Shown here: in pieces, positions 859 through 27,083 of the stretch
How positions within the stretch are numbered: the stretch's first letter is position 1
How the letters are laid out: each line of letters begins with the position of its first letter
Assembly (NCBI GenBank): GCA_021848165.1
Contig: JAJZMW010000160.1
Coordinates: forward strand, 1 to 42,050
DNA length: 42,050 nt
Direction: 5' to 3'
Source: Thermoplasmata archaeon
GTDB taxonomy: Archaea > Thermoplasmatota > Thermoplasmata > Lutacidiplasmatales > UBA184
Translations under genes and position numbers: made by a program
Notes under the pieces: model-generated
Seen by the model: only the letters and a program-made list of their open reading frames with translations
Told to the model about the DNA's origin: nothing
Databases searched by the model: none

Positions 859-2037
859 GTGGTGCTCCCGATGGCCGGGGCCGCTCCGGGGCCGTACGCG
901 CCGCATCGCTCGGCCCGGACCCCGCCCGGGCGGGTCTACACGGATCCGCAGCGGTTCGACCAAGAGATGGAACGCCTCTTCTTCGCGAACTGGCTCGCCG
1001 TGGGGTCGTCGTCCGAGTTCGCCGAGCGGAACCGGTTCTGGATGCGAGAGGTCGCCGCGGAGAGCGTGCTGCTCGCGCGCGATCGCGCGGGCGAGCTGCG
1101 CGCGTTCTACAACGTGTGCCGGCACCGCGGGGCCCGCTTGGTCGACGGCCCCCCGACGACCGACGGCGGTCCGATCGTCTGCGCCTACCACGGCTGGACC
1201 TACGGCCTCGATGGTCGTCTCCTCGGCGCCCGCGACACCGACGATCTTCCGGGATTCCGCGTCGACGACCAAGGACTCGTTCCCCTCCACGTCGCTGAGG
1301 AGGGCGGTCTCGTATGGATCCACTTCGCGGCGGAGCCGGCGCCTCTCGCCGCATCGTTCGGACCGATCCTCTCGCGATGGGGCGGGGTCCACGGGATGGT
1401 ACGCGGTGCCCGGCGAGAGTACTCCGTCGCCGCGAACTGGAAGATCGTGGTCGAGAACTTCGCGGAGTGCTACCATTGCGCCCCGGTGCACCCGACGCTC
1501 AACCGGATCACCCCGTATCGTTCGGGGGCCAACGACGCGTGGTTCGCCCGCGGGGCGCGCGGCGAGTTTGCGGGAGGATACATGGAGCTCGTCGACGGCT
1601 GCGACTCCCTCGTGCGAGGAGGGCGCACGTCGCGACCGCCGCTGGCGAGCCGTCGGGCCGAGGATCGGCGCCGGATCTACTACTACGTCCTCTTCCCGAA
1701 CCTCTTCTTGAGCTTCGCTCCCGACTACACGATGCTCCACCGGGTCGATCCCCTGGCCCCGGGTCGCTCGCGCGTGGAGAACGAGTTCTACTTCGATGCC
1801 ACCACCGCCGGTCTCCCGAACTTCGATCCGCGCGACGTCGTGGAGCTGTGGGACGAGATCAACCGGCAGGATTGGCGCGTCTGCGAGCTCGCGCAGGCCG
1901 GGGCCCGGTCCCGCTCGTGGCACGGCGGCCGCTACAGCGACACCGAGTCGATGGTCTGCGACTTCGACCGAACGATCGCCGAACGGATGGGGGATCCCGA
2001 TCCGTGGTCGGGGGGCCCTCCCCGGAGGGCGCCATGA
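859..2037 (+). CDS. Rieske [2Fe-2S] non-haem-iron oxygenase, alpha subunit (ring-hydroxylating oxygenase family)
   Basis: Rieske motif CRHRG...CAYHGW and mononuclear iron motif NFAECYHCAPVHP. GTG at 859; an alternative ATG lies at 871. Confidence 0.85.
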   Translation: MVLPMAGAAPGPYAPHRSARTPPGRVYTDPQRFDQEMERLFFANWLAVGSSSEFAERNRFWMREVAAESVLLARDRAGELRAFYNVCRHRGARLVDGPPTTDGGPIVCAYHGWTYGLDGRLLGARDTDDLPGFRVDDQGLVPLHVAEEGGLVWIHFAAEPAPLAASFGPILSRWGGVHGMVRGARREYSVAANWKIVVENFAECYHCAPVHPTLNRITPYRSGANDAWFARGARGEFAGGYMELVDGCDSLVRGGRTSRPPLASRRAEDRRRIYYYVLFPNLFLSFAPDYTMLHRVDPLAPGRSRVENEFYFDATTAGLPNFDPRDVVELWDEINRQDWRVCELAQAGARSRSWHGGRYSDTESMVCDFDRTIAERMGDPDPWSGGPPRRAP

Positions 2038-13494: not shown

Positions 13495-13633
13495 CGCATG
13501 GGCCGCCGCTCACCTCGGAGGAAGCGGAGGCACGCGAGGCTCCCGCTCCGCTCCCCCGGACCCGCGCCGGCCGAGCGCCGGGCCGAACTCCTCACGGTAA
13601 ACTTATCTGAGAATCCCGGGTCGCTTGGGTCGG

Positions 13634-14881
13634 ATGGGCGCCGAGGAGAATCTGGTCGAGGACTACCACGCTCGGACCGCCGCGGAGCGACGCATCGCCC
13701 CCCGGATCGAGTTCTGGGACGAAACGCTCCGGGACGGCGAGCAGATGCCCGGGGTCCACTATTCTCCCGAGGAGAAGCTCCGCATCGCCGAACTCCTCAG
13801 CGAGATCGGCGTTCCGATCATCGACGCGGGGATCCCGGTCGTCTCCGCGGAGGAGGCCGCCTCCGTTCACCGGCTCGCGCATGCCGGCCTGCGGGCGAAG
13901 GTCCTCGGATCGGCCCGGACCGTGCCCGGCGATGTCGAAGCGGTCATTCGATCGGGCGCGAGCCACATCGCGATCTTCGTCGCCGCGAGCAACGTCCATC
14001 TCAAGTTCAAGCTCAAAATGACGCAGGAGGAGGTCCTCGAGCACGCGCTCGCCTGCGTTCGCCGCGCGAAGGAGGCCGGCCTCCACACCTCGTTCGTGAC
14101 CGAGGATACCGTCCGGGCGCCGTTCGAGTTCGTCGAGCGGCTCTACCGGGAGGTCCAGAACGCTGGGGCGGACCGCTTGGTGGTGGCGGACACCGTCGGG
14201 ATCATGACCCCCCTCACCTTCCGCTGGTGGCTCGGCGAGTTCCAACGACGCGTTCGACCGAAGGACCTCTCGGTCCACTGCCACAACGACTTCGGGCTTG
14301 CCACGGCGAACACGCTCACCGCGGTCGAGATGGGCGCGGTCGCGCCCCACACCTGCGTCAACGGCCTCGGCGAGCGGAGCGGGAACGCCGCGTTCGAAGA
14401 GGTCGCCTTCGCTCTCGAGCGTCTCTACGGGGTGCGGACGGGACTGAAGCTCGACCGGATCTACGAGGTCTCCCGTCTGGTCGAGGAGCTCTCGGGCATC
14501 CCCGTCCCCGCGAACAAGGCGCTCGTCGGATACTTCTCGTTCAGCCATGAGGCGGGGATCCACACCCACGGCATCCTGGCCCACACGGCGACCTACGAGC
14601 CGATGCAGCCCGAGGCGATCGGCCGGGAGCGCCAGATGATTCTCGGCAAGCATACGGGCAAGGCGGCGCTCGCGGAGAAGCTCAAGGGGAAGGGGATCGC
14701 CGCGCCGGATCCCGTTCTCTCGGAGATCCTCCGCAAGGTGAAGGAAGCGAGCGAGTCCCGTTCGAAGGAGGAGCTGCGTCGCTTCCTCCGGGAGTATCGG
14801 TCCCTCTTCGAACGGCCCGGGATCAGCGACGACGAATTCTGGAAGATGGTGGCGGACGCCGGCATCCAGGTCGCCGCATGA
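13634..14881 (+). CDS. 2-isopropylmalate / homocitrate / citramalate synthase family enzyme (short form, no LeuA regulatory domain)
   Basis: DRE-TIM motifs: WDETLRDGEQ, HCHNDFGLATANT and GLGERSGNA. At about 415 aa it lacks the C-terminal LeuA allosteric domain. ATG at 13634; an alternative TTG lies at 13625. Confidence 0.85.
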   Translation: MGAEENLVEDYHARTAAERRIAPRIEFWDETLRDGEQMPGVHYSPEEKLRIAELLSEIGVPIIDAGIPVVSAEEAASVHRLAHAGLRAKVLGSARTVPGDVEAVIRSGASHIAIFVAASNVHLKFKLKMTQEEVLEHALACVRRAKEAGLHTSFVTEDTVRAPFEFVERLYREVQNAGADRLVVADTVGIMTPLTFRWWLGEFQRRVRPKDLSVHCHNDFGLATANTLTAVEMGAVAPHTCVNGLGERSGNAAFEEVAFALERLYGVRTGLKLDRIYEVSRLVEELSGIPVPANKALVGYFSFSHEAGIHTHGILAHTATYEPMQPEAIGRERQMILGKHTGKAALAEKLKGKGIAAPDPVLSEILRKVKEASESRSKEELRRFLREYRSLFERPGISDDEFWKMVADAGIQVAA

Positions 14882-16164
14882 GCGCGACGGCGCGGGGCCA
14901 TGGAATGACCCTGGCGGAGAAGATCCTCGCCCGGGCCTCGGCGACCGAGTCGGTCGTGCCCGGCCAGATCGTCGAGGGGACCGTCGACCTCGCGATGATG
15001 CACGAGCAGGGCGCGCAAACGGTGCAGCCGTTCCACGAGATGGGCGCCACCCGGGTATGGGACCCCGACCGCGTGGTCATCGCCATCGATCACTGGGTCC
15101 CGGCGTCGACCGAGGGGGCGGCGGTGCTCCATCGGATCCTCCGCAAGTTCGCGGACGAGGTCCACCTTCCACACTTCTACGACGTCGGGAACCACGGCAT
15201 CTGTCACCAGATCCTCGCGGAGAACGGGTGGGTCGTTCCGGGGGATCTGGCCGTCGGCACGGACTCTCACACGAACATGCTCGGCGCGATGGGGGCGGTC
15301 GCGGCCGGCATCGGCCCGACCGAGATGGCGGCGGTCCTGGCCCTCGGACGGCTGTGGCTCAAGGTGCCGCCCACGCTCCGCATCGAGGTCCGGGGAACCC
15401 TCGGACCGGGGGTCACGGCGAAGGATCTCGTGCTGCGGACGCTCGGCGAGGTGAAGACGACCGGCGCCACCTACAAGGCGGTCGAATGGACCGGACCCAC
15501 GATCGCGAAGCTCGGCATGCCCGAGCGCCTGACGATCTGCAACATGACGACCGAGATGGGGGCGAAGTGCGGGATGGTTGCCCCGGACGGGACGACCATG
15601 GAGTATCTCGCGCGGACCGCGAAGCACGCGATGCACCCGCTGCAACCGGACGCCGACGCGAGCTACGAACGGATCCTCCGCCTCGATGTCGACGGGATGC
15701 CGCCGATGGTGGCGTGCCCGTACTCCCCCGACAACGTGCGCCCGCTCCCCGAGGTCGCGCGGGAGCACATCCGCGTCGATCAGGCGTTCCTCGGCTCCTG
15801 CACGAACGCCCGGATCGAGGATCTCCGAGAAGGCGCCGCGATCCTCAAGGGCCACAAGGTCCACCCCCGGGTCCGGTTCATCGTCTCGCCGGCGTCGACC
15901 GCGATCTATCGCCAGTGCCTGAGCGAGGGGCTCGTCGACCTCTACACCGAGGCCGGCGCGGTCTTCACGAACTCGAGCTGCTCCGCGTGCTTTGGTGGGA
16001 ACATGGGCATCATCGCCCCGGACGAGGTCTGCGCCTCCTCCTCGAACCGCAACTTCCCCGGGCGCATGGGACCGAAGGAGGGCCGCATCTACCTCATGTC
16101 CCCCGCCGCGACCGTCGCGGCGGCGATCCGCGGCGAGCTCGCCGATCCCCGGGAGTACGCCTAG
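14878..16164 (+). CDS. leuC: 3-isopropylmalate dehydratase / homoaconitase large subunit
   Basis: Aconitase-family large subunit: MTLAEKIL, GTDSHT, GSCTNARIEDL, and the Fe-S ligand region NSSCSACFG. ATGA overlap with the synthase gene. Confidence 0.85.
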   Translation: MSATARGHGMTLAEKILARASATESVVPGQIVEGTVDLAMMHEQGAQTVQPFHEMGATRVWDPDRVVIAIDHWVPASTEGAAVLHRILRKFADEVHLPHFYDVGNHGICHQILAENGWVVPGDLAVGTDSHTNMLGAMGAVAAGIGPTEMAAVLALGRLWLKVPPTLRIEVRGTLGPGVTAKDLVLRTLGEVKTTGATYKAVEWTGPTIAKLGMPERLTICNMTTEMGAKCGMVAPDGTTMEYLARTAKHAMHPLQPDADASYERILRLDVDGMPPMVACPYSPDNVRPLPEVAREHIRVDQAFLGSCTNARIEDLREGAAILKGHKVHPRVRFIVSPASTAIYRQCLSEGLVDLYTEAGAVFTNSSCSACFGGNMGIIAPDEVCASSSNRNFPGRMGPKEGRIYLMSPAATVAAAIRGELADPREYA

Positions 16165-16171
16165 AGGGAGG

Positions 16172-16702
16172 ATGCGCGAGATCATCGAGGGCCGGGTGTG
16201 GACGCTCGGCCGGGACGTCGACACCGACCAGATCATCTCGGGGAAGTACCTGACGATCATCGATCCGAACGTCCTGAAGACCAAGGTTCTCGAGATCGGC
16301 CTGCCCGAGTTCGCCAGCCAATCGCGCCCGGGGGACATCCTCGTCGCCGACGCCAACTTCGGCTCCGGCTCGAGCCGGGAGCACGCGCCGCAGGCGCTGC
16401 GGGCCGCCGGAGTCGGGGCGATCGTCGCCGATTCGTTCGCCCGCATCTTTTACCGCAACTCGATCAATCTCGGGATCCCGACGATCGAGGCCCCGGGGGT
16501 CCGCGCGCTCTTCGAGAGGTTCGACCCCGCCCGCATCGACATGCGCGCGGGGTCGGTGACGAACGTCCGCACCGGTCGGTCGATCTCCTTCCCTCCGCTG
16601 CCGCCCCACCTGATCGATCTCTTGGAGGCGGGCGGATTGGTGGAGAAGGTCCGCCGCGAGCTCGCGGCGCGCCACCCACCCGCGGGGACGATGCCCCGAT
16701 GA
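16172..16702 (+). CDS. leuD: 3-isopropylmalate dehydratase / homoaconitase small subunit
   Basis: GRVW..G.DVDTDQIISGKYL, NFGSGSSREHAP and FARIFYRNSINLG. GGAGG lies directly upstream of the ATG. Confidence 0.85.
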   Translation: MREIIEGRVWTLGRDVDTDQIISGKYLTIIDPNVLKTKVLEIGLPEFASQSRPGDILVADANFGSGSSREHAPQALRAAGVGAIVADSFARIFYRNSINLGIPTIEAPGVRALFERFDPARIDMRAGSVTNVRTGRSISFPPLPPHLIDLLEAGGLVEKVRRELAARHPPAGTMPR

Positions 16703-17832
16703 GGAGCGCGCGCGCCGAGATCGCCGTTCTCCCGGGCGACGGGATCGGACCCGAGGTGATCCGCGAGGGAGAGAAGGTGCTCGCGGCTCTCGGCGAGAAC
16801 GGCGCCGCCCCGTGGAACCTCACCCGGTACCCCGGCGGCGCGGAGTACTACGAACGGACCGGCCGGGAGTGGGAGCCCGAAGCCGAGGCGGCGACGGAGC
16901 GCGCCGACGCGATCCTCCTGGGCGCGGTCGGCAAGCCCGGGGTCTCGCTCCCCAACGGGGACATCGCCGGGGCCGCCCTCGTGCTCGGACTCCGAACGAA
17001 CCTCGATCTGTACGCGAACGTCCGCCCGTGCCGTCTGTACCCCGGGGTGCTCCACCGCGTCCACGCCTCCTACCAGCAGATCTGGCGGCCGGAGCTGGTC
17101 GACATGATCCTCGTCCGAGAGAACACGGAGGATCTCTACGCCCCGCTGCACGGCCGCCTGAGCCGCGCGCACGAGACCGAGGTCGCGGTCGACACCCGCC
17201 TCATCACTCGCAAGGGCGCGGAGCGGGTCGTGCGACGCGCCTTCGAGATCGCCCAACGGCGGGGGAAGGGGGCCCCCGAGGACCAGCGGCTCCGCCTCAC
17301 GTGCGTCGACAAGTCGAACGTGATGGAGGGATGCCGGTTCTTCCGGGAGACCTACGACCGCGTGAGCGCCGAGTTCCCCGGGGTCGACCGGGACTACGCT
17401 TACGTCGACGCGTTCACCCAGTGGCTCGTCCGCAACCCGGAACACTTCGACGTCGTGGTCGCCCCCAACATGATGGGCGACATCATCACCGATCTCGCGA
17501 GCGTCCTCCAGGGAGGGATGGGGTTCGCCGCCGGAGGGAACCTCGGCGACCGTCACGCGATGTTCGAGCCGGTCCACGGGAGCGCGCCCAAGTACGCGGG
17601 TCGCGACCAGGTGAACCCGTTCGCGACGTTCTTCGCGATCGAGATGATGCTGCGCTACCTCGGCGACCGACGGGGGGACGGTACGTTCTCGGCCCAGGCC
17701 GACCGGCTCGAGCGAGCGATCGCCGGCATCCTCGCCGACGGCGCGGCGCGGACCTACGACCAGGGGGGTACCGCCCGGACCAGCGAGGTCGGCGACCGCG
17801 TCGCGGCCGCGGTGCGCGGAGAGCGTCGATGA
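16699..17832 (+). CDS. isopropylmalate / homoisocitrate / tartrate dehydrogenase family (beta-decarboxylating dehydrogenase)
   Basis: LPGDGIGPEV, LYANVRP, VRENTEDLY, NMMGDIITDL and FEPVHGSAP. ATGA overlap with the upstream gene. Confidence 0.85.
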   Translation: MRSARAEIAVLPGDGIGPEVIREGEKVLAALGENGAAPWNLTRYPGGAEYYERTGREWEPEAEAATERADAILLGAVGKPGVSLPNGDIAGAALVLGLRTNLDLYANVRPCRLYPGVLHRVHASYQQIWRPELVDMILVRENTEDLYAPLHGRLSRAHETEVAVDTRLITRKGAERVVRRAFEIAQRRGKGAPEDQRLRLTCVDKSNVMEGCRFFRETYDRVSAEFPGVDRDYAYVDAFTQWLVRNPEHFDVVVAPNMMGDIITDLASVLQGGMGFAAGGNLGDRHAMFEPVHGSAPKYAGRDQVNPFATFFAIEMMLRYLGDRRGDGTFSAQADRLERAIAGILADGAARTYDQGGTARTSEVGDRVAAAVRGERR

Positions 17833-19010
17833 GCGCGCGCCAGGTCGCGATCGTCGCCGGCGTGACGACCGCGTTCGGGGTCCGCCCGACCACCTGGAGC
17901 GAGATGGCCCAGGAGGTCGGGGCGGCGCTCTTCCGTGAGGAACCGGAATTGCGCAGCGAGGACGTCGACTCCCTCTTCGTTGGTGCCGCCGAACCGGAGC
18001 GGTTCGCCTTCCAATCGCACGTCGCCCCGCTCGCCGCGGAGCAGATGGGGTTGCGCCCCGACCGGATCCTGCAGCGGACCGAGCTTGCCTGCGCGTCGGG
18101 CCAATCGGCGATCCGCTCCGCGTACGCCGCCATCGCCGCCGGCCTGTCCGACATCGCCGTCGCCGTCGGGATCGAGAAGATGAACCTCCCGTCGATGGCC
18201 GAGGCGAACGCGTCGATGGGATGCGTGATGGATCGAGCGTGGGACGGGCCCCACGGCGCGACCGCCCCCCCGTTCTTTGCGATGGTCGCGCAGCGCCACA
18301 TGCTCGAGCACGGGACGACCGAGGAGCAGCTTGCCGCCGTCTCGGCGAAGAACCATCGGTTCGCCAACACCAACCCGACCTCGCAGTTCTATTCGAAGGT
18401 CTTCTCCCGGGAGAAGCTCGCCCGCCTGCCCCTCATCGCCCCCCCGCTGCGCCTCGGCGACTGCTCGAGCATGACCGACGGGGCGGCCGCCGTCGTCCTG
18501 ACGGCCGACGAGAACGTCCGGCGGTTCACGGAGACCCCCGCCTGGATCCGCGGGACCGGACAGTACTCCCATTTCCACAACCTGGCGCACGCCGGGTCCC
18601 TCACCGAGTGGCCCGGACTCACCCGGGCGGCGCGGGGGGCGCTCGGCCAGGCCGGCATCGGGATCGGCGACATCGACGTCGCCGAGCTCCACGACTGCTT
18701 CACGATCTCCGAGATCGTCGAGTACGAGGCGCTCGGTCTCTGCCCTCCGGGCCGGGGGGGGGCGTTCGTCGAGGAGGGGCGGTCGGACGTCGGCGGCGAC
18801 ATCGTCGTCAACCCGCGGGGCGGGCTCCTCGGCTGCGGCCACCCTCTCGGAGCGACCGGGATCGCTCAGGCGGTCGAGATCTTCGGCCAGCTGGGCCAAC
18901 GCGTGCCGGCGGCCCGCCAAGCTCCGCACGCCGAGTGGGGGCTCGTCCACAACCTCTCCGGCAGCGCGAACGTCCATTCGGTCATGGTCTATCAGGGCGG
19001 GGGGACGTGA
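17829..19010 (+). CDS. archaeal-type thiolase (acetyl-CoA C-acetyltransferase, SCP-x-like)
   Basis: Active-site region TELACASGQSAI, C-terminal GGLLGCGHPLGATG, and AELHDCFTISEI. ATGA overlap with the upstream gene. Confidence 0.85.
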   Translation: MSARQVAIVAGVTTAFGVRPTTWSEMAQEVGAALFREEPELRSEDVDSLFVGAAEPERFAFQSHVAPLAAEQMGLRPDRILQRTELACASGQSAIRSAYAAIAAGLSDIAVAVGIEKMNLPSMAEANASMGCVMDRAWDGPHGATAPPFFAMVAQRHMLEHGTTEEQLAAVSAKNHRFANTNPTSQFYSKVFSREKLARLPLIAPPLRLGDCSSMTDGAAAVVLTADENVRRFTETPAWIRGTGQYSHFHNLAHAGSLTEWPGLTRAARGALGQAGIGIGDIDVAELHDCFTISEIVEYEALGLCPPGRGGAFVEEGRSDVGGDIVVNPRGGLLGCGHPLGATGIAQAVEIFGQLGQRVPAARQAPHAEWGLVHNLSGSANVHSVMVYQGGGT

Positions 19011-19573
19011 TGGCCGCCGAAAGCCGTCCCCGCAAGCTTCCTCCGTCGGACGAGGCAGCGCGCCGATCGGAGTCGGCCCCCCCTCCCCCCGTCGCTTCGG
19101 CGGCGCCGCCCGCCCCGACCGAGCGCCCCCCCGCGAGCGCCCGGCCCCCGCTCCCGTTCCTCCTCGACTTCTTTCCGCTCGAAGGGCCGGAACACACGCG
19201 CCTATCGGCGTTCTACGACGAGCTCCGGCGTCGGCGATTCACGACCACGCGCTGCTCGGGGTGCGGGCAGCTCCACTGGCCCCCTCGCGTCGCATGCCCG
19301 GCCTGCCACTCGGAGTCGCTCGGATGGGTCGAACTCCCCACGACCGGACGGATCTACGCGTTCAGCGCCGTGCTCGCGGGAGCCCCGTTGGGCTTGGAAG
19401 GAGACGTCCCGTTCGCGGTCGGACTCGTCGACCTCGACGGCGTCCCGCTGCGCATTTTCGGGCGGATCGACGGCCGACCGTGGCCGGAGCTGCACGTCGG
19501 TGACCCGGTCCGGGTCGTCCCGTACGATCTGCCGGACGGACGGGCGTTCTACCGATTCGAGGTCGTCCCGTAA
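19010..19573 (+). CDS. DUF35 Zn-ribbon/OB-fold protein (thiolase-associated scaffold) with a Pro/Ala-rich N-terminal extension
   Basis: Rubredoxin-like CSGCG....PPR..CPAC followed by an OB-fold segment (GRIYAFS...VGLVDLDG). The ATG shares one nucleotide with the thiolase TGA. Confidence 0.8.
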   Translation: MAAESRPRKLPPSDEAARRSESAPPPPVASAAPPAPTERPPASARPPLPFLLDFFPLEGPEHTRLSAFYDELRRRRFTTTRCSGCGQLHWPPRVACPACHSESLGWVELPTTGRIYAFSAVLAGAPLGLEGDVPFAVGLVDLDGVPLRIFGRIDGRPWPELHVGDPVRVVPYDLPDGRAFYRFEVVP

Positions 19574-19627: not shown

Positions 19628-19674
19628 GTGGCCCAAGGTCTCGCGGCCCGCCGGTCCGAGGGCACCGGTCGTCA

Positions 19675-22600
19675 ATGGTCACCGATTCTCAGGGGTGGTG
19701 GAGCCGGCACGGGTGGACCGTCGCCCTGCTCCTCTCGGCCTTCGGGCTCGCGTTCGCGGTGCGGTCGATCTGGACGATCCCGGTCCTGAACCAGTTCGGG
19801 AACCTCTACGTCTACGCGGGCGGCTCGGATTCGTACTACCACTCGCGGGTGATGCAATTCATCATCTCGAACCACCGGACGCTGATCTTCGACCCGCTCT
19901 TGAACTACCCGATCGGAGCGATCAACCCCCGGGAGCCGCTGTTCGACTGGATGAATGCGATCCTCGGGATCGTCTTCGCCCCGCTCTTTGGCGGGAACGC
20001 CGATAACGCGGGCGCGTTCTTCCTCAATCTCCAGGCTCCGCTCTGGGCGGCGCTGAGCGTCTTCCCGATCTACCTCATCGGGCGGGAGGTCGGGGACCGC
20101 CGCACCGGGATCATCGCCGGGTTCATCTTCGCGTTCCTTCCGGCCACGATCACGGAATCGATCTTTGGCTACGGGAACTATCTGAGCTTCTACACCTTCA
20201 TCATCCTGGTCGTCATCTACTCCTACATCCGGACGGTCAGGGCCGTCGGGTCGCGCCGTTGGGTCGATTCCTACCGCCATCCGAGGTCGATCGTCGCCGG
20301 CCTGCGCGGGCTCTGGCGGACCGAACGCACCGCGATCAAATGGGCCGTGTTCACCGGCGTCGGGTTCGGGACGCTCGCTCTCGCCTGGCAAGGATACACC
20401 TACGCGATCGCGGTCATCGGCGTGTTCATCATCGTCGCGATGCTCATCGAGCGGATCCGCAAGGTCGATTCGTTCGGACTCTACGTCGTCACGTGGATCG
20501 TCGGGCTCGTGGGCTTTCCGATCGCCATGCCCTACTACTACTTCCAACACCAGTTCGTGGGGTGGTTCGACCTTCCGCTCCTGCTCTTCTTTGGGATCCT
20601 GCTCCTGCTCCTCCCCTTCCTCGTGCTCCGAGACTACCCCTGGGTCGTCTCGATCCCGGCCGTCATCGGCATCTACTTCGCCGGCGGCGTCGTGCTCTTG
20701 CTCCTCAACCCGACCTACTTCACGGAGATCGTCACCGGGCAAGGCTACTTCGTCAAGACACTGATCTACTCGACCGTCGCCGAAGCTCAGGCGCCGTCGT
20801 TCGACACGCTCGCGATCTCCTACGGTGTCGTCACCTTCTTCCTCGCCTTCGTCGGCGTCGGCCTCTACGGTTGGGCGCTGATCCGTTCCCGGTTCCCTCG
20901 CTGGCTCCTCGTGTTCCTGATCTTCGCGATCCTCTCGATCTACCTCCCCATCTCCGCCTCGAAGTTCCTGCTCCTCGGATCTCCCGCGTTCGCGCTCCTC
21001 GGCGCGGAAGCGCTGCGGCGGCTCTGGGACCTCGGAGGCTACTCCGATCTGCGCCAGGGCGTGAATTCGCTCGCGGACACGCGCAGCCGGCTCACGGCGA
21101 TCCGCAAGTCGTTCAAGGCGCGGCATGTGCTCATCGTTCTGCTCGTGGTCGGCCTTCTGGTCCCCAACGTCTGGTACGGCATGGACGCCGGCATCCCGAG
21201 CAACGTGAAGGCGCAGGCGTCGGACCAGGTGTACCATTCGCTGCCCTCGTGGCTCCAGGCCCCGGCGAGCCAGGCATCGAGCTTCTACTTCGGCGCGGCG
21301 GGCTCGGCGATCGACACGCCGAATCTGTACGACTCGGCCGGCTACTCTTGGTTAGCGCAGCAAGATACGGCCATCCCGCAACCCGAGCGACCCGCCCTGA
21401 TCGCGTGGTGGGACTACGGGTTCCAGACGATCGACCAAGGGCAGCATCCGTCGGTCGCCGACAACTTCCAGAACGGCATCGACCCGTCGGGGCAGTTCCT
21501 ACTCTCCCAGAACCAGTCGATCGCGATCGGGGTGCTCTCGACGACGCTCCTCTACGCCGAACTCGTGAAGGACGGCGGTTCTACTCTCCCGTCGGGGCTG
21601 ACGACCGTCCTCGCTTCGAACGGCATCAAGGTAGCCACGCTGATGGCGGACCTGACCGACCGGGCCGCCGACTACAACGCGGTCGTGGCGAACCCCCAGA
21701 TCTACATGCCCGTCAACCCGGCCACCCTCACCGACCTCAACGCGGTCTACATGGTGACGAGCTACTACCTCGCGACCCTGACGCCGACCGCGGTCGCGCA
21801 GGTGTACAACGCGATCCAGCAGTATACGGGTTGGTCGATCCGTTACGCGATGGCCGATAGCCGCCTGATCCCCTTCAGCGGCACGAGCACCGGCATCTAC
21901 TACGCGCCGGCCGATCTGACGGGCCGTCTGATCGACTCGGGGGGGAACCCGGAGACGTACTTCAACGTCACCGTGCTCGGCTCGAACGGGCAGTACTATC
22001 CTTCCGGCCAAGTGCCCCCGTCGGTCCAGGCGGTGAACTACTACGTGAACTATTTCGCGCCGTTCTACAACTCGATGATCTACCGGATCTACTTCGGCTA
22101 CAACGGGACCGATATCGGTCTCTCCGCCGGAATCCCGGGCCTCGCCGGTTCCCTCACGAGCTACCCGATCGAGCCGGGCTGGATGGAGTCGCACTTCATG
22201 GTGCAGTACCAGACGGCCTACTACTGCCCCACCCCGTCGCAGGCGGCGAGCCAGGGCTGCTTCTACGCCACGAACCGCCCCACGGCGGAGGCGCTCGCCG
22301 CGAGCCAGGGCGGGGTCGCGAACCTGAACGCGAGCGCCTACTTCGGCGGGGGCGAGTCGGTGCTCGTGTACTACGCCGGTCAGCCGATGACCGGGACGGT
22401 GACCCTCCCGAACGGCGTGCCGGTCGCGGGCGCGCGGGTGACGGTGGACGATGGCTGGGGGATCCCGCACCAGAGCGTCGTGACCGGCCCGAACGGCGAG
22501 TACTCGATCCTCTTGCCGCCGGGGAACGACACCGTGAACGTCACGATCGGGACCCTGCAGGGACTTAGCCAGCAAGGGAACATCGTCCTCGATTCGATCC

Positions 22601-25600
22601 CGATCCAGGTCTCGCCGGCGCTCGGATACAGCTTCTCGGCGCCCACCCTCGTCCGCTCGATCGTGCTGGATCCCTCGACCGTCTCGGGGATCGTGTACTG
22701 GAACATCGCGAACTCGACCGCCTACGTGCCCACGATCGACCCCGTCGCCGCCAACGCCCAGGTCGTCCTTTGGGGGGTTGCGAACGGGAGCCGCATCACG
22801 ACCTCGACCGACGCCGGGGGGACGTTCCAGCTCACGAACGTCCCGCCGGGGGTCTACGACTACAGCGTCCTCTACCAAGGCGCGAACTACACCCAAACGA
22901 GCGTCTACGTCAATCCGGCGAGCTCCCCGGTCAATGCGAGCGCGGGCCTGACGCCGGCGAACCTCACGGGGACCGTGAGCGACAGCTCCGGCGCGCCGAT
23001 CGCTCTCGCTGCCGTCACGATCCAAGGGGCGAACGGGCTCAGTCTTACCGTACCGACCGACAACCAAGGAACGTACACGCTCCAAGACCTCGGGCCCGGA
23101 AACTATACCCTCACCGCAGTCGGCCCTTCCGCGAACGAACGCTCCTTGGGAACATCGCTCGTCCTCACCTCGATCGGAGAGCACAAGGTCGTGAACCTGG
23201 TCGAAGCGCCGGTCGCACCGGTGAGCTTCACCGTCAGCGCGGGGGGGCTTCCGCTCGCGAACGTTCCGGTTCGATTGACCCCGGATCCCGGTGGGAACGG
23301 GACCTCCCCGGTCGCCTCTTACGTGCGAGCGCTCGCGAACGCGACCGTCCTTACCTCGAACGCCGCCGGGGTCGTCAGTGGCTACATTCCCGTCGGGCGA
23401 TACTCGGTCTACGCGGCCACGGTCGTGGGCTCGACCCTCGAGGCGGCGGTCGGCTCGCTTGACGTGTCCACCGCGGCGAGCGCCGTGATCGGTCCCTCCC
23501 TCATCCTCGCCCCGGCCGGATGGCTCACCGGCGCGATCGTCCCGTCGGCCGGGGCGAACTCGACCAGCGTGGTCGTGGCGTTCTCGTCCGGTGGGGCTTC
23601 CACGTACCTCGCGACGACCAACGGCTCGTTCGCCGTGGCGGTGCCGTTCGGGAACTACACCGTTCTCACGCTCCAGAGCCCGACAGGATCTTCGAGCTCT
23701 CTGGACGCCGCGCTCCAAGCGGCGAGCGTCCCGTCGCGCACGTCGCTCGCGGTCGACCCGGTGGTCGCGATCCGAACCACGGTGGCCGTGACGACCCCGA
23801 TCGGCGGTTCGGGAGAGTATCCGGCCGCCGGAACGACCGCCACCCTTTCGATCGGCGGGGGCCCGATCGCGATTTCCGTCCCCGTCAGCGCGGGCGGGAA
23901 CGCCTCCCTGATCGCCCCGTCGTCGTTGGCCAACGGGCAGACCTACTGCTTCTCGGTCGCCGGGTACGGCTACGCGTCCGCGCAGGAGTGCGGCATCGCC
24001 CCCGGGGCGCTCTCCTCGTTCACGCATCTTTCGATCGCGTTCGTCCCGGTCGCGCTGACGTTGGACCTCACGGGCGCCCCCGGGGGCGCGCCGGTGACCG
24101 TCTACCTCAACGGGACCAGCGCGACCGCCCCCGACTACATGGTGACGGGCACGAGCACCGTCACGGTGTCGGTGAACCCCGGCAACTACACCGTCGCGGC
24201 GATCGCGCCCGGCACGCCGGGTCGAACTCTGTACATGTCTCGCCCCGGCCCGACGCTCACCCTCCCTCTCGGGAGCGGGGCCAGGACCGAGTCGATCGCC
24301 CTCCAATTCGAAGTGAACGCGACCGGCACTCTGCTCCTTCCGGCAGGCCTCCCGGCCTCGAACGTGACGATCGAGCTGACCGGCGGGACGACGACCGCGC
24401 ACGTGAACGGAACCGCGTACACGCACGGCTTCTACGTCGCCCCCGGGAGCTATTCCGCCTATTCGGTCGGCACGAGCGCGTCGGGAAGCTTCACCAACCT
24501 CACGGGGGTGACGGTGTCGAACGGGGGGATCGTCTCGCCCACGGTCCGGCTCGGATTACCGGGCTACGTGCTGAGCGGCACGTTGGTCGCCCCCAACGGA
24601 ACCGTGGTTCCCGCCACGACGACCGTCGTCCTCACCTCGAGCGCCGGGGCCGTCGCCCGAGCGAGCGCGACGGCGGGGCGATTCTCGATCACCCTCCCCG
24701 CGGGCACGAGCTACACGGCGACGTCCCAAGCGACCGTCGTGACGGGGGGTCCCAACGGTTCGTACTTCGTGGAATGGTCGACCGTGCCCGGCGGGTCCGT
24801 CTGCTCGGTCGGCGCGGCCCCAAGCACGTGTCAGGTTTCGATGACCGGGTCGGTCCAGCCGGTCTGGTTCAACGGGACCGTTGGGGCGCCAGGGTATTCG
24901 GGTTTCCTCCCGTCGACGCTGACCTTGGTGGGTCCGTATCCGGCCGGGTCGCGAACGACGATCGCCGCCCCGAACGGCGTCTTCTCGGTCTCGGTCGCCC
25001 CCGGCGCCTACACGCTCTACGTCACGAGCGACGGCGCGACGAGCGCCTTTGCGAATCTGTCGAGCGTGACGATCCTGCCGTCCAGTGGGGCGTTCTCGGT
25101 CCGGCTCTCTGACGCGTGGCAGGATCTGATCACGATCCAATCCCCCGGGGGGGGTGGGATCGCGCCGAGCTCGGTGACGCTGAACGTCCTCTCGGTGACG
25201 GGCGCGCGGTGGGCGATCGACTCCGCGCCGCTCTCCGTGCCGATCCCGCTGACGCTGCCGATCGGGGTCTATTCGTTGCGGGCAAACGCGACCGGAAGCC
25301 CGTACGGGGCTCTCGCCGCCGCGCAGGCGCTCGGGAGCGCCACGATCCTCGGCGGGAACACGGCGACCCGGCTTTCGCTGGCCTGGTCGCTCACCACCGA
25401 CGTCTCGGGCCTGGCGCTCGGGACGGGACGCGTCGACCTCCCGGCGAGCGGGGGCCTCGTCCAGTTCAGCGTCACCCTCACGAACCACGGTTCCGCGCCC
25501 ACGCGGGTCAGCGTGGTCGTGAGCCCGGCGTACTGGACCGTCTCGACGTCGCTCACGAACGTGACCCTCGGCGTCACCGCTCCGACCAACACGACCTCGG

Positions 25601-26241
25601 GGATCGTCAGCGTGCTCGTCCCGGCGGGGACCCTCGTGGCGCACCCCGCCTTGATCGTCTCGATCGTGAACGCCTCCTCCGACGTGCCGGTCGCGACCGT
25701 GAAGGACCCGCCGACGGTCTTCGTGGCGCCGAGCTACGGGCTGACGCTCGCGCCCTCCAGCTCCCCCGCCCAGGTCGGTGCGACGCACGTCCTCGTACCG
25801 TTCTCCGTCACCAACACGGGGAATCTGATCGAGGGACTGTCGCTGACCGTCGTCAACGCGGCGCAGCTCGCGAGCCTCGGCTGGACCGCCAACATCGCCC
25901 CGGCGAGCGCGACCACCCCCACGGTCGATCCCGGTACGTCGGTCGTGTTCAGCCTCAACTTGACCGCGACCGGGCCGACGATCCCTCCCGCGACGGGGGT
26001 CGTGGCGGTCGAGGTCCTGAACGCGACGGGGGGCCTCCAGCGGACGATCTCCCTCACCATCCCGAGCACGCAGGTCGCGATCCAGCCCGGGCTCACGGTC
26101 ACCGGCCCCTCGCTCGGAAGCGCCCCGAACGTGCTCCCGACCGGGGCGCTGATCGCTCTGGCCCTGGTCCCGGCGATCGTCGTCGGCCTGCTCCTCGGCA
26201 TCTGGCGGTGGAACCGGACCCGGAGGTGGCAGCGGTGGTGA
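19675..26241 (+). CDS. aglB: giant AglB/STT3 oligosaccharyltransferase (2188 aa) fused to a sequon-rich beta-sandwich repeat array and a C-terminal membrane anchor
   Basis: The N-terminal ~500 aa are polytopic membrane protein with GGSDSYYH in the first external loop. WWDYG at aa 578-582 (nt 21406-21420) is followed by ADNFQNG. From about aa 900 the sequence is Thr/Ser/Val/Gly/Ala-rich and nearly charge-free, with about 30 N-x-S/T sequons. It ends with a TM helix and basic tail (ALIALALVPAIVVGLLLGIWRWNRTRRWQRW). The frame is open throughout. Confidence 0.85.
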   Translation: MVTDSQGWWSRHGWTVALLLSAFGLAFAVRSIWTIPVLNQFGNLYVYAGGSDSYYHSRVMQFIISNHRTLIFDPLLNYPIGAINPREPLFDWMNAILGIVFAPLFGGNADNAGAFFLNLQAPLWAALSVFPIYLIGREVGDRRTGIIAGFIFAFLPATITESIFGYGNYLSFYTFIILVVIYSYIRTVRAVGSRRWVDSYRHPRSIVAGLRGLWRTERTAIKWAVFTGVGFGTLALAWQGYTYAIAVIGVFIIVAMLIERIRKVDSFGLYVVTWIVGLVGFPIAMPYYYFQHQFVGWFDLPLLLFFGILLLLLPFLVLRDYPWVVSIPAVIGIYFAGGVVLLLLNPTYFTEIVTGQGYFVKTLIYSTVAEAQAPSFDTLAISYGVVTFFLAFVGVGLYGWALIRSRFPRWLLVFLIFAILSIYLPISASKFLLLGSPAFALLGAEALRRLWDLGGYSDLRQGVNSLADTRSRLTAIRKSFKARHVLIVLLVVGLLVPNVWYGMDAGIPSNVKAQASDQVYHSLPSWLQAPASQASSFYFGAAGSAIDTPNLYDSAGYSWLAQQDTAIPQPERPALIAWWDYGFQTIDQGQHPSVADNFQNGIDPSGQFLLSQNQSIAIGVLSTTLLYAELVKDGGSTLPSGLTTVLASNGIKVATLMADLTDRAADYNAVVANPQIYMPVNPATLTDLNAVYMVTSYYLATLTPTAVAQVYNAIQQYTGWSIRYAMADSRLIPFSGTSTGIYYAPADLTGRLIDSGGNPETYFNVTVLGSNGQYYPSGQVPPSVQAVNYYVNYFAPFYNSMIYRIYFGYNGTDIGLSAGIPGLAGSLTSYPIEPGWMESHFMVQYQTAYYCPTPSQAASQGCFYATNRPTAEALAASQGGVANLNASAYFGGGESVLVYYAGQPMTGTVTLPNGVPVAGARVTVDDGWGIPHQSVVTGPNGEYSILLPPGNDTVNVTIGTLQGLSQQGNIVLDSIPIQVSPALGYSFSAPTLVRSIVLDPSTVSGIVYWNIANSTAYVPTIDPVAANAQVVLWGVANGSRITTSTDAGGTFQLTNVPPGVYDYSVLYQGANYTQTSVYVNPASSPVNASAGLTPANLTGTVSDSSGAPIALAAVTIQGANGLSLTVPTDNQGTYTLQDLGPGNYTLTAVGPSANERSLGTSLVLTSIGEHKVVNLVEAPVAPVSFTVSAGGLPLANVPVRLTPDPGGNGTSPVASYVRALANATVLTSNAAGVVSGYIPVGRYSVYAATVVGSTLEAAVGSLDVSTAASAVIGPSLILAPAGWLTGAIVPSAGANSTSVVVAFSSGGASTYLATTNGSFAVAVPFGNYTVLTLQSPTGSSSSLDAALQAASVPSRTSLAVDPVVAIRTTVAVTTPIGGSGEYPAAGTTATLSIGGGPIAISVPVSAGGNASLIAPSSLANGQTYCFSVAGYGYASAQECGIAPGALSSFTHLSIAFVPVALTLDLTGAPGGAPVTVYLNGTSATAPDYMVTGTSTVTVSVNPGNYTVAAIAPGTPGRTLYMSRPGPTLTLPLGSGARTESIALQFEVNATGTLLLPAGLPASNVTIELTGGTTTAHVNGTAYTHGFYVAPGSYSAYSVGTSASGSFTNLTGVTVSNGGIVSPTVRLGLPGYVLSGTLVAPNGTVVPATTTVVLTSSAGAVARASATAGRFSITLPAGTSYTATSQATVVTGGPNGSYFVEWSTVPGGSVCSVGAAPSTCQVSMTGSVQPVWFNGTVGAPGYSGFLPSTLTLVGPYPAGSRTTIAAPNGVFSVSVAPGAYTLYVTSDGATSAFANLSSVTILPSSGAFSVRLSDAWQDLITIQSPGGGGIAPSSVTLNVLSVTGARWAIDSAPLSVPIPLTLPIGVYSLRANATGSPYGALAAAQALGSATILGGNTATRLSLAWSLTTDVSGLALGTGRVDLPASGGLVQFSVTLTNHGSAPTRVSVVVSPAYWTVSTSLTNVTLGVTAPTNTTSGIVSVLVPAGTLVAHPALIVSIVNASSDVPVATVKDPPTVFVAPSYGLTLAPSSSPAQVGATHVLVPFSVTNTGNLIEGLSLTVVNAAQLASLGWTANIAPASATTPTVDPGTSVVFSLNLTATGPTIPPATGVVAVEVLNATGGLQRTISLTIPSTQVAIQPGLTVTGPSLGSAPNVLPTGALIALALVPAIVVGLLLGIWRWNRTRRWQRW

Positions 26242-27083
26242 GCCGCCACGCGGCCCGGACCCTCCTGCTCGTGGCGATCCTCGTCGCCGGAGCGTTCGGC
26301 GGGCTCACGGGGGCCGCCTGGGCCACCCCTTCGGGGACGGCCGCGTCGGCCCACCCGGCGCTCCCCGCGAGCTCCCCCCCGCTGACCGGCTCCGTCCACG
26401 GGCCCACGCTCGTGCTGCCCAATGCGACCAACGTCTACACGGTCAACGCGACCGGTGGGCCTGCCGTGGCGGCGAACGGAACGCGCGTCGGGAACCTGAC
26501 CTTCTACGCTTCGCTCGCGAGCGCCAACACCACCGGGGTCAAGGTCAGCCCGACGTTCGGCGGTCTCACGGGCAACTCGAGCTACTCGATCTTTCTGACC
26601 GTCGGGCCGGTGGCCCAGACGGTGACGTTGACGGTGGAGTTCGCGAGCGTCTACCAGCACCAGAACGTCTCGATCAACCTGACGACCGTGATCCAAGTCG
26701 TGCGGCCGTTCCAGCTGACCGGGGAGGTCGTCGCGAGCGCCACGACGGTGCTGCCGTTCTCGATCCAGGTCGCGCTGGACGGGACGATCGTGGGGTCCGT
26801 ATCGGTGCCGACGCTGACGCCGCACGAGTTCTACAACTTCACCTATCAGTACCTCACCGCGGGGCTCGCGTCCGGGTATCACACGTTCACGCTGACCTTG
26901 CCCCAGCAGAACGGCCAGGTGCGATTCGCGAACGGGGCGATCAGCTATTCCGTGACGTTCTACATCGCGGGGCCCGCCCCCAACTACACGCTCTACTACC
27001 TCCTCGGGGGCGTCGCCTTCGTCGGGGTCATACTTATATTCCTCATCTTGGTCGGCGCGCGCCGCCGAGCGGGGGGCCGCTAG
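26238..27083 (+). CDS. secreted, C-terminally anchored, sequon-rich protein (putative surface glycoprotein)
   Basis: The GTG start overlaps the aglB stop (GTGA). N-terminal signal-like segment RTLLLVAILVAGAFGGLTGAAWA. Ten N-x-S/T sequons in 281 aa. C-terminal TM helix plus Arg tail (LLGGVAFVGVILIFLILVGARRRAGGR). Confidence 0.7.
   Translation: MSRHAARTLLLVAILVAGAFGGLTGAAWATPSGTAASAHPALPASSPPLTGSVHGPTLVLPNATNVYTVNATGGPAVAANGTRVGNLTFYASLASANTTGVKVSPTFGGLTGNSSYSIFLTVGPVAQTVTLTVEFASVYQHQNVSINLTTVIQVVRPFQLTGEVVASATTVLPFSIQVALDGTIVGSVSVPTLTPHEFYNFTYQYLTAGLASGYHTFTLTLPQQNGQVRFANGAISYSVTFYIAGPAPNYTLYYLLGGVAFVGVILIFLILVGARRRAGGR

Follow-up and report, generated by a model that had tools for sequence, protein, structure and literature searches.

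Archaeal and bacterial oligosaccharyltransferases (OSTs) are treated as single-subunit enzymes of ~600-1050 residues, and to our knowledge all structural and mechanistic OST work on prokaryotes rests on such short forms. In the solved archaeal enzymes (AglB) the N-terminus is cytoplasmic and 13 transmembrane (TM) helices put the C-terminal domain outside the cell; in characterised AglBs the central core is followed by peripheral units that are rich in beta-structure and variable. The present contribution deals with a giant aglB gene on a stretch of 42,050 nucleotides from a Thermoplasmata archaeon (GenBank assembly GCA_021848165.1, contig JAJZMW010000160.1, positions 1 to 42,050; the whole stretch is called the window in the following). 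A preliminary description of this DNA had recognised an STT3/AglB core that continues into a long, sequon-rich extension with a second membrane anchor. What is new is the presence of a stalk, a second anchor and a partner on a bona fide AglB relative, an arrangement that is widespread but for which no published description was found; AglB itself is known. We think it rather probable that giant aglB encodes the OST of the lineage with a built-in glycosylated stalk or arch and a partner, presumably serving as a scaffold of the cell envelope.

Core, stalk and second anchor of the giant AglB

The gene is a single open frame (Table 1), as had been read before, and the positions given for the motifs GGSDSYYH, WWDYG and ADNFQNG (aa 49, 578 and 595) were confirmed. 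The N-terminal part has the STT3/AglB fold that was assigned to it. Pfam family STT3 (PF02516) matched aa 47-431 with 34.9 bits and passed its cutoff of 24.5, and TIGR04154 (archaeo_STT3, archaeosortase A-associated) covered aa 17-807 with an E-value of 1.7e-63, at 215.3 bits versus a cutoff of 450. The giant core is related to the TIGR04154 subfamily but stands outside it. An AlphaFold model of aa 1-1100, of moderate confidence (pLDDT 63, catalytic loops low), contains 13 long helices, and a Foldseek search with the core model returned Archaeoglobus fulgidus AglB at the top (E 2e-15), followed by human STT3A/B, yeast Stt3 and PglB. The sequence of the core also matches A. fulgidus AglB in the PDB. 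Among the orthologues the core is the most conserved part of the protein (55-76 % identity).

The catalytic motifs are largely retained. D52 of external loop 1 (EL1) is present in 61 of the 63 aligned orthologues, and the Glu of the EL5 motif, WWDYG and ADNFQ are likewise invariant or nearly so (Table 1). A canonical second metal-binding motif (DxD, DxE or DxH) was not found in the window protein when it was aligned to A. fulgidus AglB. Position 168 is asparagine in 56 and aspartate in 7 of the 63 orthologues; other giants have D-H-D (Methanomassiliicoccales and Poseidoniales), D-W-D (Aciduliprofundum) or R-M/A-H (Thermoplasmatales) in this place. In the extracytoplasmic AglB region, Cys851 and Cys862 are conserved, and family AglB_core-like (PF22627) matched aa 550-618 only weakly (20.9 bits versus a cutoff of 27). 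The region in which a DK or MI motif would be expected holds the conserved segment N613-(E/Q)-S-x-A-I-(G/A)-(V/I)-L. Its sequon, N613-(Q/E)-S, lies 12 residues past ADNFQNG in all 63 orthologues and is present in the majority of distant giants too. N613 may possibly be a conserved self-glycosylation site beside the active site.

The AglB region is followed by the stalk, the all-beta nature of which is apparent from an AlphaFold model of aa 989-2188 (mean pLDDT 84.3, terminal helix at aa 2156-2183). Combination with the overlapping model of aa 1-1100 leads to a count of ~13 beta-sandwich domains with approximate boundaries at aa 893-985, 998-1080, 1088-1168, 1173-1266, 1273-1360, 1361-1453, 1456-1543, 1544-1624, 1626-1728, 1729-1810, 1811-1893, 1894-1988 and 1991-2130, each carrying 1-4 sequons. 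Several families had been named for a search with the protein. CarboxypepD_reg (PF13620) was found in three stretches (88.6 bits, cutoff 32.3), and the stalk domains are assigned to this transthyretin-like type; NEW3 (PF10633) gave no match in the giant protein at E <= 0.1. Weaker Pfam matches than CarboxypepD_reg were obtained for EMC7_beta-sandw (32.5 bits, cutoff 26.6) and for folds of the SdrD_B type; NOMO1-like_2nd appeared as a faint precomputed match only, and the last two domains matched 'choice-of-anchor T' weakly (26 bits versus a cutoff of 70). As to structural analogues of the stalk in the PDB, Foldseek returned only generic tandem beta-sandwich proteins with TM-scores <= 0.12, among them Bacillus anthracis TIE, MG domains of alpha2-macroglobulin and Gram-positive pilins.

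The composition of the extension (aa 880-2120) is as previously noted: A, V, T, G and S account for 11.5-12.6 % each, and D, E, K and R together for only 5.2 %. This scant charge is lineage-specific, as D+E reaches 16-20 % in marine relatives. The whole protein has 35 N-x-S/T sequons, none in aa 1-600 and 31 in the extension, close to the ~30 counted before, where composition-preserving shuffles predict 12.4 +/- 3.2. The statement that nearly every asparagine of the extension is part of a sequon was too strong, since only 31 of the 56 are (55 %). The picture of a repeat or mucin-like array also has to be given up, because there are no tandem repeats and the domains are folded, divergent beta-sandwiches rather than low-complexity sequence. 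A recent repeat expansion as the origin of the stalk was rejected, as tandem repeats are absent at the DNA level and similarity between domains is marginal (best E ~1e-4).

The orthologues share 55-76 % identity in the core but only 25-45 % in the stalk, of which domain 1, directly after the globular AglB region, is best conserved (48-62 % in the clade) and recognisable throughout the phylum. The length varies little: the 63 orthologues measure 2157-2231 aa in total, and the part beyond domain 1 comprises 1078-1197 aa in seven lineages that share <= 23 % identity. Wherever similarity is detectable between lineages, the stalk is colinear from end to end. The orthologues have a median of 39 sequons in the extension versus 14 in shuffles (z 7.8), and there are ~31 alignment columns in which half of them or more have a sequon despite 25-45 % identity. 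As length, sequons and order are conserved at such low identity, the stalk looks like an orthologous domain array of old age, in which selection acts on the fold, the number of domains and glycosylation and not on a specific binding surface.

The extension is predicted to be extracellular, in agreement with the preliminary description, because 13 TM helices precede it and the N-terminus is cytoplasmic as in the solved AglBs. An extracytoplasmic location is also indicated by the positionally conserved sequons and by three conserved Cys pairs, 1425/1439 and 1710/1719 in the stalk and 851/862 before it. The protein is re-anchored by the final helix and its basic tail, as had been recognised; with this 14th TM helix the tail comes to lie on the cytoplasmic side again, which agrees with the positive-inside rule. 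There is a fairly strong case that the stalk forms an arch or hairpin, since with both ends fixed in the membrane it cannot be a free rod. Inside the 14th helix the pair P2166-A2167 is invariant or near-invariant in the soil clade, and the tail motif [YW]RW[WN][RK]TRRWxR[RW] is found in nearly all complete orthologues from ~70 species genomes; tails in other lineages are generic and K/R-rich. Judged from the alignment, the P-A pair and the tail motif appear far more conserved than a passive anchor needs. A PGF-CTERM or other archaeosortase signal was not detected by any NCBIfam model at E <= 0.1; the C-terminus reads VPAI...WRWNRTRRWQRW.

Spread of the giant form and its partner gene

Four contigs of separate assemblies (ERZ27237452, ERZ27237515, GCA_027382245.1) encode the 2188-aa protein in identical form. 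A cluster search covering 5.8 billion proteins yielded more than 120 clusters at 48-63 % identity and 98-100 % coverage, with lengths of 2136-2211 aa; the named ones are all metagenome-assembled genomes of Thermoplasmata, and related genomes have thus kept the fusion. A scan of species-representative genomes gave at least 570 loci, the best 80 of which come from Thermoplasmata of acid soil or peat, including Candidatus Lutacidiplasma silvani. These 80 are all close relatives, and taxonomic breadth was therefore taken from the cluster names. Frames read from stop to stop are intact in the best loci and close with the same tail; those few that are shorter belong to long-read bins with frameshifts. 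Three of the latter from long-read 'MFD' bins (L005, identical to P0012, as well as L034 and L048) have 1264-1996 aa, apparent frameshifts and a partner gene that is displaced 0.85-2.4 kb downstream; these truncations probably stem from indels in sequencing and not from biology.

The core alone (aa 1-880), searched against 1.84 billion representative proteins at 50 % clustering, gave 784 matches, and the best 150 were examined. Lengths of 2000-3171 aa were found for 92 of these 150, even at 29-37 % core identity, and 90 of the 92 end in a hydrophobic helix with a K/R tail. Full-length orthologues are present in the finished genomes BA000011.4, CP003168.1 and CP058896.1, and cultured organisms are represented (Table 1). 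In two Poseidoniales/marine group II proteins (P0259 and P0266, 3146-3171 aa) an additional polytopic region of ~350-400 aa precedes the STT3 core and the stalk is longer. Judged by these homologues, the giant form is the norm in Thermoplasmatota, cultured Thermoplasma included, and the copy of the window an ordinary member. The uniqueness implied by the preliminary description is not supported, as the genomes of Thermoplasma volcanium and Aciduliprofundum have been public for years. Long fusions are common, and it is only their description that we did not find: databases label the proteins 'STT3', 'glycosyltransferase family 39' or 'carboxypeptidase regulatory-like domain-containing protein', and searches of the open full-text literature, including papers that mention AglB in Thermoplasmatales, yielded no account of the architecture. 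The supplement of PMC12448462 has no entry for the giant AglB gene.

Neither the non-canonical second catalytic motif nor the gene that follows aglB figured in the preliminary description. The predicted product of this gene, called partner here, combines two beta-sandwich domains with a signal helix, a C-terminal TM helix and an R-rich tail (RRR), and it has 10 sequons; a juxtamembrane motif F-Y-x-x-G-P-x-P-x-Y is conserved. Family CARDB (PF07705) was its sole match, at a sub-threshold score (17.5 bits, cutoff 22.7, E 0.0048), and none of the eukaryotic OST accessory families was detected in the partner scan at E <= 0.05. The corresponding CARDB scores are 28.0 bits for the T. volcanium partner, which passes the cutoff of 22.7, and 21.0 bits for that of Methanomassiliicoccales. 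A partner homologue lies directly 3' of aglB in 72 of the 80 related loci, that is, in all with enough sequence. The same pair is found in T. volcanium (partner of 259 aa), Aciduliprofundum (257 aa), a Methanomassiliicoccales genome (263 aa) and two further lineages of Thermoplasmatota (262 and 265 aa); all other neighbours of the pair differ among these five lineages. The two genes overlap by 4 nt in four of the five and are separated by 2 nt in the fifth, and the partners are homologous by BLASTP (E 9e-10, 7e-12 and 3e-29). The partner (~260-280 aa) is translationally coupled to giant aglB in six deep lineages and CARDB-like in most orthologues.

A search of the longer giant AglBs with a partner profile revealed matches within the same polypeptide, at aa 2382-2644 of P0184 (2667 aa, E 1.7e-23) and at aa 2623-2738 of P0201 (E 1e-8). 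P0184 carries a complete partner, joined on after the terminal TM helix of AglB itself. Conserved coupling together with such Rosetta-stone fusions argues for a physical partnership, and the sequence-based case that the partner associates with the giant AglB is fairly strong.

Table 1 Features of the giant aglB locus and giant AglBs of other Thermoplasmatota
Feature	Position in the window	Strand	Length (aa)	Basis or remark
Giant aglB gene	19675..26241	+	2188	Single ORF, ATG start, stop codon, uninterrupted
13-TM STT3/AglB membrane domain (aa 1-505)	19675..21189	+		Pfam STT3, TIGR04154, model, Foldseek
EL1 catalytic motif GGSD52SYYH (from aa 49)	19819..19842	+		Aligns with A. fulgidus GGND47PWYY
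Non-canonical second acidic motif N168-Y-L170	20176..20184	+		Aligned at A. fulgidus D161-H-H163
EL5 TIXE-type motif T367-V-A-E370	20773..20784	+		E370 in 63/63 orthologues
Extracytoplasmic AglB C-terminal region (aa 506-892)	21190..22350	+		Contains WWDYG, ADNFQNG and the N613 sequon
WWDYG (aa 578-582)	21406-21420	+		63/63 orthologues
ADNFQNG (from aa 595)	21457-21477	+		ADNFQ invariant or nearly so in 63 orthologues
Sequon N613-Q-S (aa 613-615)	21511-21519	+		Invariant, 63/63 orthologues
Stalk, ~13 beta-sandwich domains (aa 893-2130)	22351..26064	+		AlphaFold model, Pfam CarboxypepD_reg
Flexible juxtamembrane linker (aa 2131-2155)	26065..26139	+		pLDDT < 50 at aa ~2133-2154
14th TM helix (aa 2156-2177)	26140..26205	+		Hydropathy 2.83; helix in model
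Cytoplasmic tail RWNRTRRWQRW (aa 2178-2188)	26206..26238	+		Conserved tail motif
Partner gene, bitopic glycoprotein (predicted)	26235..27083	+	282	Gene call; overlaps aglB stop by 7 nt
Thermoplasma volcanium GSS1 giant AglB (TVG1271204)			2076	
Ferroplasma sp. giant AglB			2056	
Oxyplasma meridianum giant AglB			2113	
Cuniculiplasma spp. giant AglBs			2091 and 2111	
Caldiplasma sukawensis giant AglB			2093	
Aciduliprofundum sp. MAR08-339 giant AglB			2081	
Methanomassiliicoccales archaeon giant AglB			2175	
Candidatus Poseidoniales giant AglB			3171	

Proposed function and rival explanations

According to the explanation that we favour, the core, an N-in, 13-TM STT3 fold with D52, E370 and WWDYG, would act as a dolichol-linked oligosaccharide:protein-Asn transferase, and it would transfer dolichol-linked glycans, as other AglBs do, to sequons in surface proteins while these emerge from the membrane. 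A fairly strong argument can be made from its sequons and the helix count that the stalk stands outside the cell and would be heavily N-glycosylated by the same enzyme, either in cis or in trans. The assumption that it is a structural scaffold or spacer, in which the number of domains and not their sequence is under selection, is a weaker one. Among the roles suggested by the preliminary description, that of a spacer or ruler is nevertheless the best supported, namely by the conservation of length, and its term 'substrate-like' for the ectodomain is justified only in so far as any archaeal surface protein is rich in sequons, and not beyond that.

The stalk might embed or hold the OST within an unordered glycoprotein coat of ~20 nm that replaces the S-layer, and might also contribute to this coat. 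Cryo-electron tomography of Cuniculiplasma divulgatum and O. meridianum revealed a dense, unordered layer of ~20 nm that probably consists of glycoproteins and replaces the S-layer (PMC12448462). Both species encode giant AglBs. For scale, four TIE-type Ig domains measure 19 nm, and the rod of NOMO1 sets a spacing of ~27 nm in the endoplasmic reticulum (PMC8327139). Thirteen domains would have a contour of up to ~60 nm and, with both feet in the membrane, could therefore form an arch of at most ~30 nm height. That such an arch and the ~20 nm exterior protein layer agree in scale is suggestive, yet it does not count as evidence. It is doubtful to us whether one may go as far as to regard the Thermoplasmatota OST not as a single-subunit enzyme but as a two-gene, envelope-spanning machine of giant AglB and CARDB-like partner, in which a glycosylated 20-30 nm arch of 13 domains would build the ~20 nm layer of these wall-less archaea or set its height and the glycosylating enzyme would be physically part of the coat.

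Several observations weigh against the favoured explanation. The second metal-binding motif is N168-Y-L170, where PglB, Stt3 and A. fulgidus AglB have D-x-D or D-x-H, and for this reason the catalytic competence of the giant AglB is not proven. The model of the stalk has a pTM of only 0.50; the geometry between domains is not fixed by it, so that the height of the arch is no more than an estimate. Relatives of ~1100-1200 aa with two or three beta-sandwich domains and without the second anchor occur in the same phylum, and this anchor is thus not obligatory for the family. The neighbourhood of the soil clade is syntenic throughout (EF-1beta, YdjM, thiolase), which makes the adjacency of the partner within this clade weak evidence when taken alone, and a Poseidoniales protein has no separate partner and only a weak fusion signal (E 9e-4). 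OSTs are normally enzymes of low abundance; it is therefore unlikely that one of them makes up the bulk of a surface coat.

The non-canonical motif is also an argument for a pseudo-enzyme, the core of which would have lost its transferase activity in this clade; the protein would then have a structural or adhesive role as a surface glycoprotein, and glycosylation would fall to another OST. Of the three metal ligands of A. fulgidus AglB, two (D161 and H163) are indeed N and L here, and the 215 bits obtained with TIGR04154 stay under the cutoff of 450. However, there is little or no variation in D52, E370, WWDYG, ADNFQ and the N613 sequon, the core is the most conserved part of the protein (55-76 % identity), and the occurrence of D besides N at position 168 (7 of 63 orthologues) is what one expects of a tolerated metal ligand. 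Thermoplasmatales N-glycosylate their sequons, as glycans were resolved on the pili of C. divulgatum and the archaella of O. meridianum (PMC12448462). Since these Thermoplasmatales, with their equally non-canonical R-M/A-H motif (R-M-H), demonstrably glycosylate, the unusual motif is compatible with an N-glycosylating cell (PMC12448462). No other OST was seen, without an exhaustive search for one. We consider loss of activity improbable.

Among the four rival explanations, only one keeps an appreciable probability, although we still regard it as unlikely: stalk and partner could form a substrate-handling platform that binds acceptor proteins, nascent or folded, or lipid-linked glycans and keeps them close to the active site, in functional replacement of the lumenal domains of ribophorin I, OST48 and Swp1. 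In its favour, the accessory subunits of eukaryotic OST are bitopic and have lumenal beta-rich domains. The better conservation of domain 1 (48-62 % in the clade, recognisable across the phylum) would fit such a role, and a dedicated, sometimes fused partner suggests a multi-subunit enzyme. On the other hand, the Pfam families of ribophorin I, OST48 and Swp1 were not matched by the giant protein at E <= 0.1, a lectin or carbohydrate-binding family was not detected, and the ten distal domains evolve fast (25-40 % identity) at fixed number, which is better explained by a spacer than by specific binding. Very improbable, and more so than a pseudo-enzyme, is that the stalk is mainly an outward adhesin or binding module for contact between cells or with surfaces whose fusion to AglB merely ensures co-expression. 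The CARDB-type domains of the partner and the structural similarity of the stalk to Gram-positive pilins, adhesins and TIE point in this direction, but double anchoring leaves no free tip, an adhesin-type terminal domain is missing, and the fusion is ancient, colinear and phylum-wide with a fixed number of domains, whereas adhesins typically vary in repeat number. An assembly or frameshift artefact that merged AglB with a downstream surface-protein gene was rejected, and we assign practically no likelihood to it. A few relatives from long-read bins (L005/P0012, L034, L048) are in fact affected by frameshifts, but these break the gene, i.e. they act in the opposite direction; the identity of the protein in separate assemblies, the hundreds of full-length orthologues, including those of finished genomes and cultured taxa, and the uniform GC3 of 0.91 along the frame all speak for a genuine fusion.

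AglBs of 2100-3170 residues concern a whole phylum, to which the cultured genera Thermoplasma, Ferroplasma, Cuniculiplasma and Oxyplasma belong as well as Methanomassiliicoccales, which are associated with the gut, and Poseidoniales, which are abundant in the sea. Provided that stalk and partner have a function, the system would be a multi-component prokaryotic OST that has arisen independently of the eukaryotic complex, a candidate for the ~20 nm exterior protein layer of Thermoplasmatales that lack an S-layer, and a natural experiment on the drift of the second metal-binding motif in STT3 enzymes. As cultured hosts exist, the questions raised by the giant AglB are directly testable.

Gene surroundings and relation to known systems

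The giant gene is embedded in housekeeping genes, and no agl glycosylation cluster is present around it (neighbours: leucine-type biosynthesis, thiolase/DUF35, EF-1beta, YdjM). Upstream, ~13625-19573 (+) of the window encodes an HMGL-like synthase, the large and small subunits of an aconitase and an isopropylmalate-type dehydrogenase; this leucine-type block is followed by a thiolase and a DUF35/OB-fold protein (the archaeal acetoacetyl-CoA thiolase partner) and then by aglB. Farther away, positions 859-2037 (+) hold a gene for a Rieske-type alpha-subunit of a ring-hydroxylating dioxygenase (PF00355, PF00848, E 1.8e-44), which hints at a possible oxidation of aromatic compounds in this soil archaeon. 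GC3 is 0.91 and uniform over the whole aglB frame in a genome of ~70 % GC. At 20001-21000 the local GC content dips to 0.63 with an AT skew of -0.32 over the Phe/Leu/Ile-rich TM domain of AglB; this is a compositional effect of coding for a membrane protein and not a foreign insert. Very long open reading frames of up to 975 aa run antisense or out of frame to aglB, among others at 21499-24426 (-), 19672-21237 (-) and 22770-25112 (+). They are rich in Arg, Gly and Asp and represent typical shadow frames of a genome with 70 % GC, not genes.

Of the systems described so far, A. fulgidus AglB-L (PDB 3WAJ/3WAK/5GMY/7E9S) is the closest in structure and in sequence. The giant protein shares with it and with other characterised archaeal AglBs the 13-TM STT3 fold and the extracytoplasmic C-terminal domain, and with A. 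fulgidus AglB the EL1 Asp, the Glu of the EL5 TIXE motif and WWDYG. It differs by its size (2188 versus ~870 aa), by ~13 extra beta-sandwich domains and a dedicated partner gene, by the 14th TM helix that puts its C-terminus back into the cytoplasm, and by N-Y-L instead of D-H-H as second acidic motif. The eukaryotic OST complex (STT3 with ribophorin I, OST48 and Swp1) has the STT3 catalytic fold in common with the giant AglB and is similar in concept, in that a catalytic subunit is combined with bitopic, beta-rich, extracytoplasmic parts without catalytic function. A DNXTZNXS/T motif has been noted for Stt3 and for AglB of TACK and Asgard archaea, and the ADNFQNG...N613-x-S region resembles that of Stt3 (PMC11407970). 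In contrast to the eukaryotic complex, however, homology to accessory subunits is not detectable in stalk or partner, and the additional mass is for the most part contained in the AglB polypeptide itself.

CarboxypepD_reg-type domains strung like beads and ending in one TM helix are also the hallmark of NOMO (nodal modulator), a rod of Ig/transthyretin-like domains in the lumen of the endoplasmic reticulum, and both proteins resemble B. anthracis TIE. NOMO has a free N-terminus and no enzyme, whereas the giant array is fused to one and anchored in the membrane at both ends; the likeness is a resemblance of architecture and not membership, as there is no specific homology beyond the shared fold clan. 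Archaeal S-layer and other surface glycoproteins with a C-terminal TM anchor have a comparable sequon-rich, beta-rich ectodomain of low charge, followed by a helix and a basic tail. Unlike S-layer glycoproteins, the giant AglB does not match an S-layer family, has no PGF-CTERM/archaeosortase signal and is joined to a polytopic enzyme, and giant AglBs are found in lineages without a crystalline S-layer.

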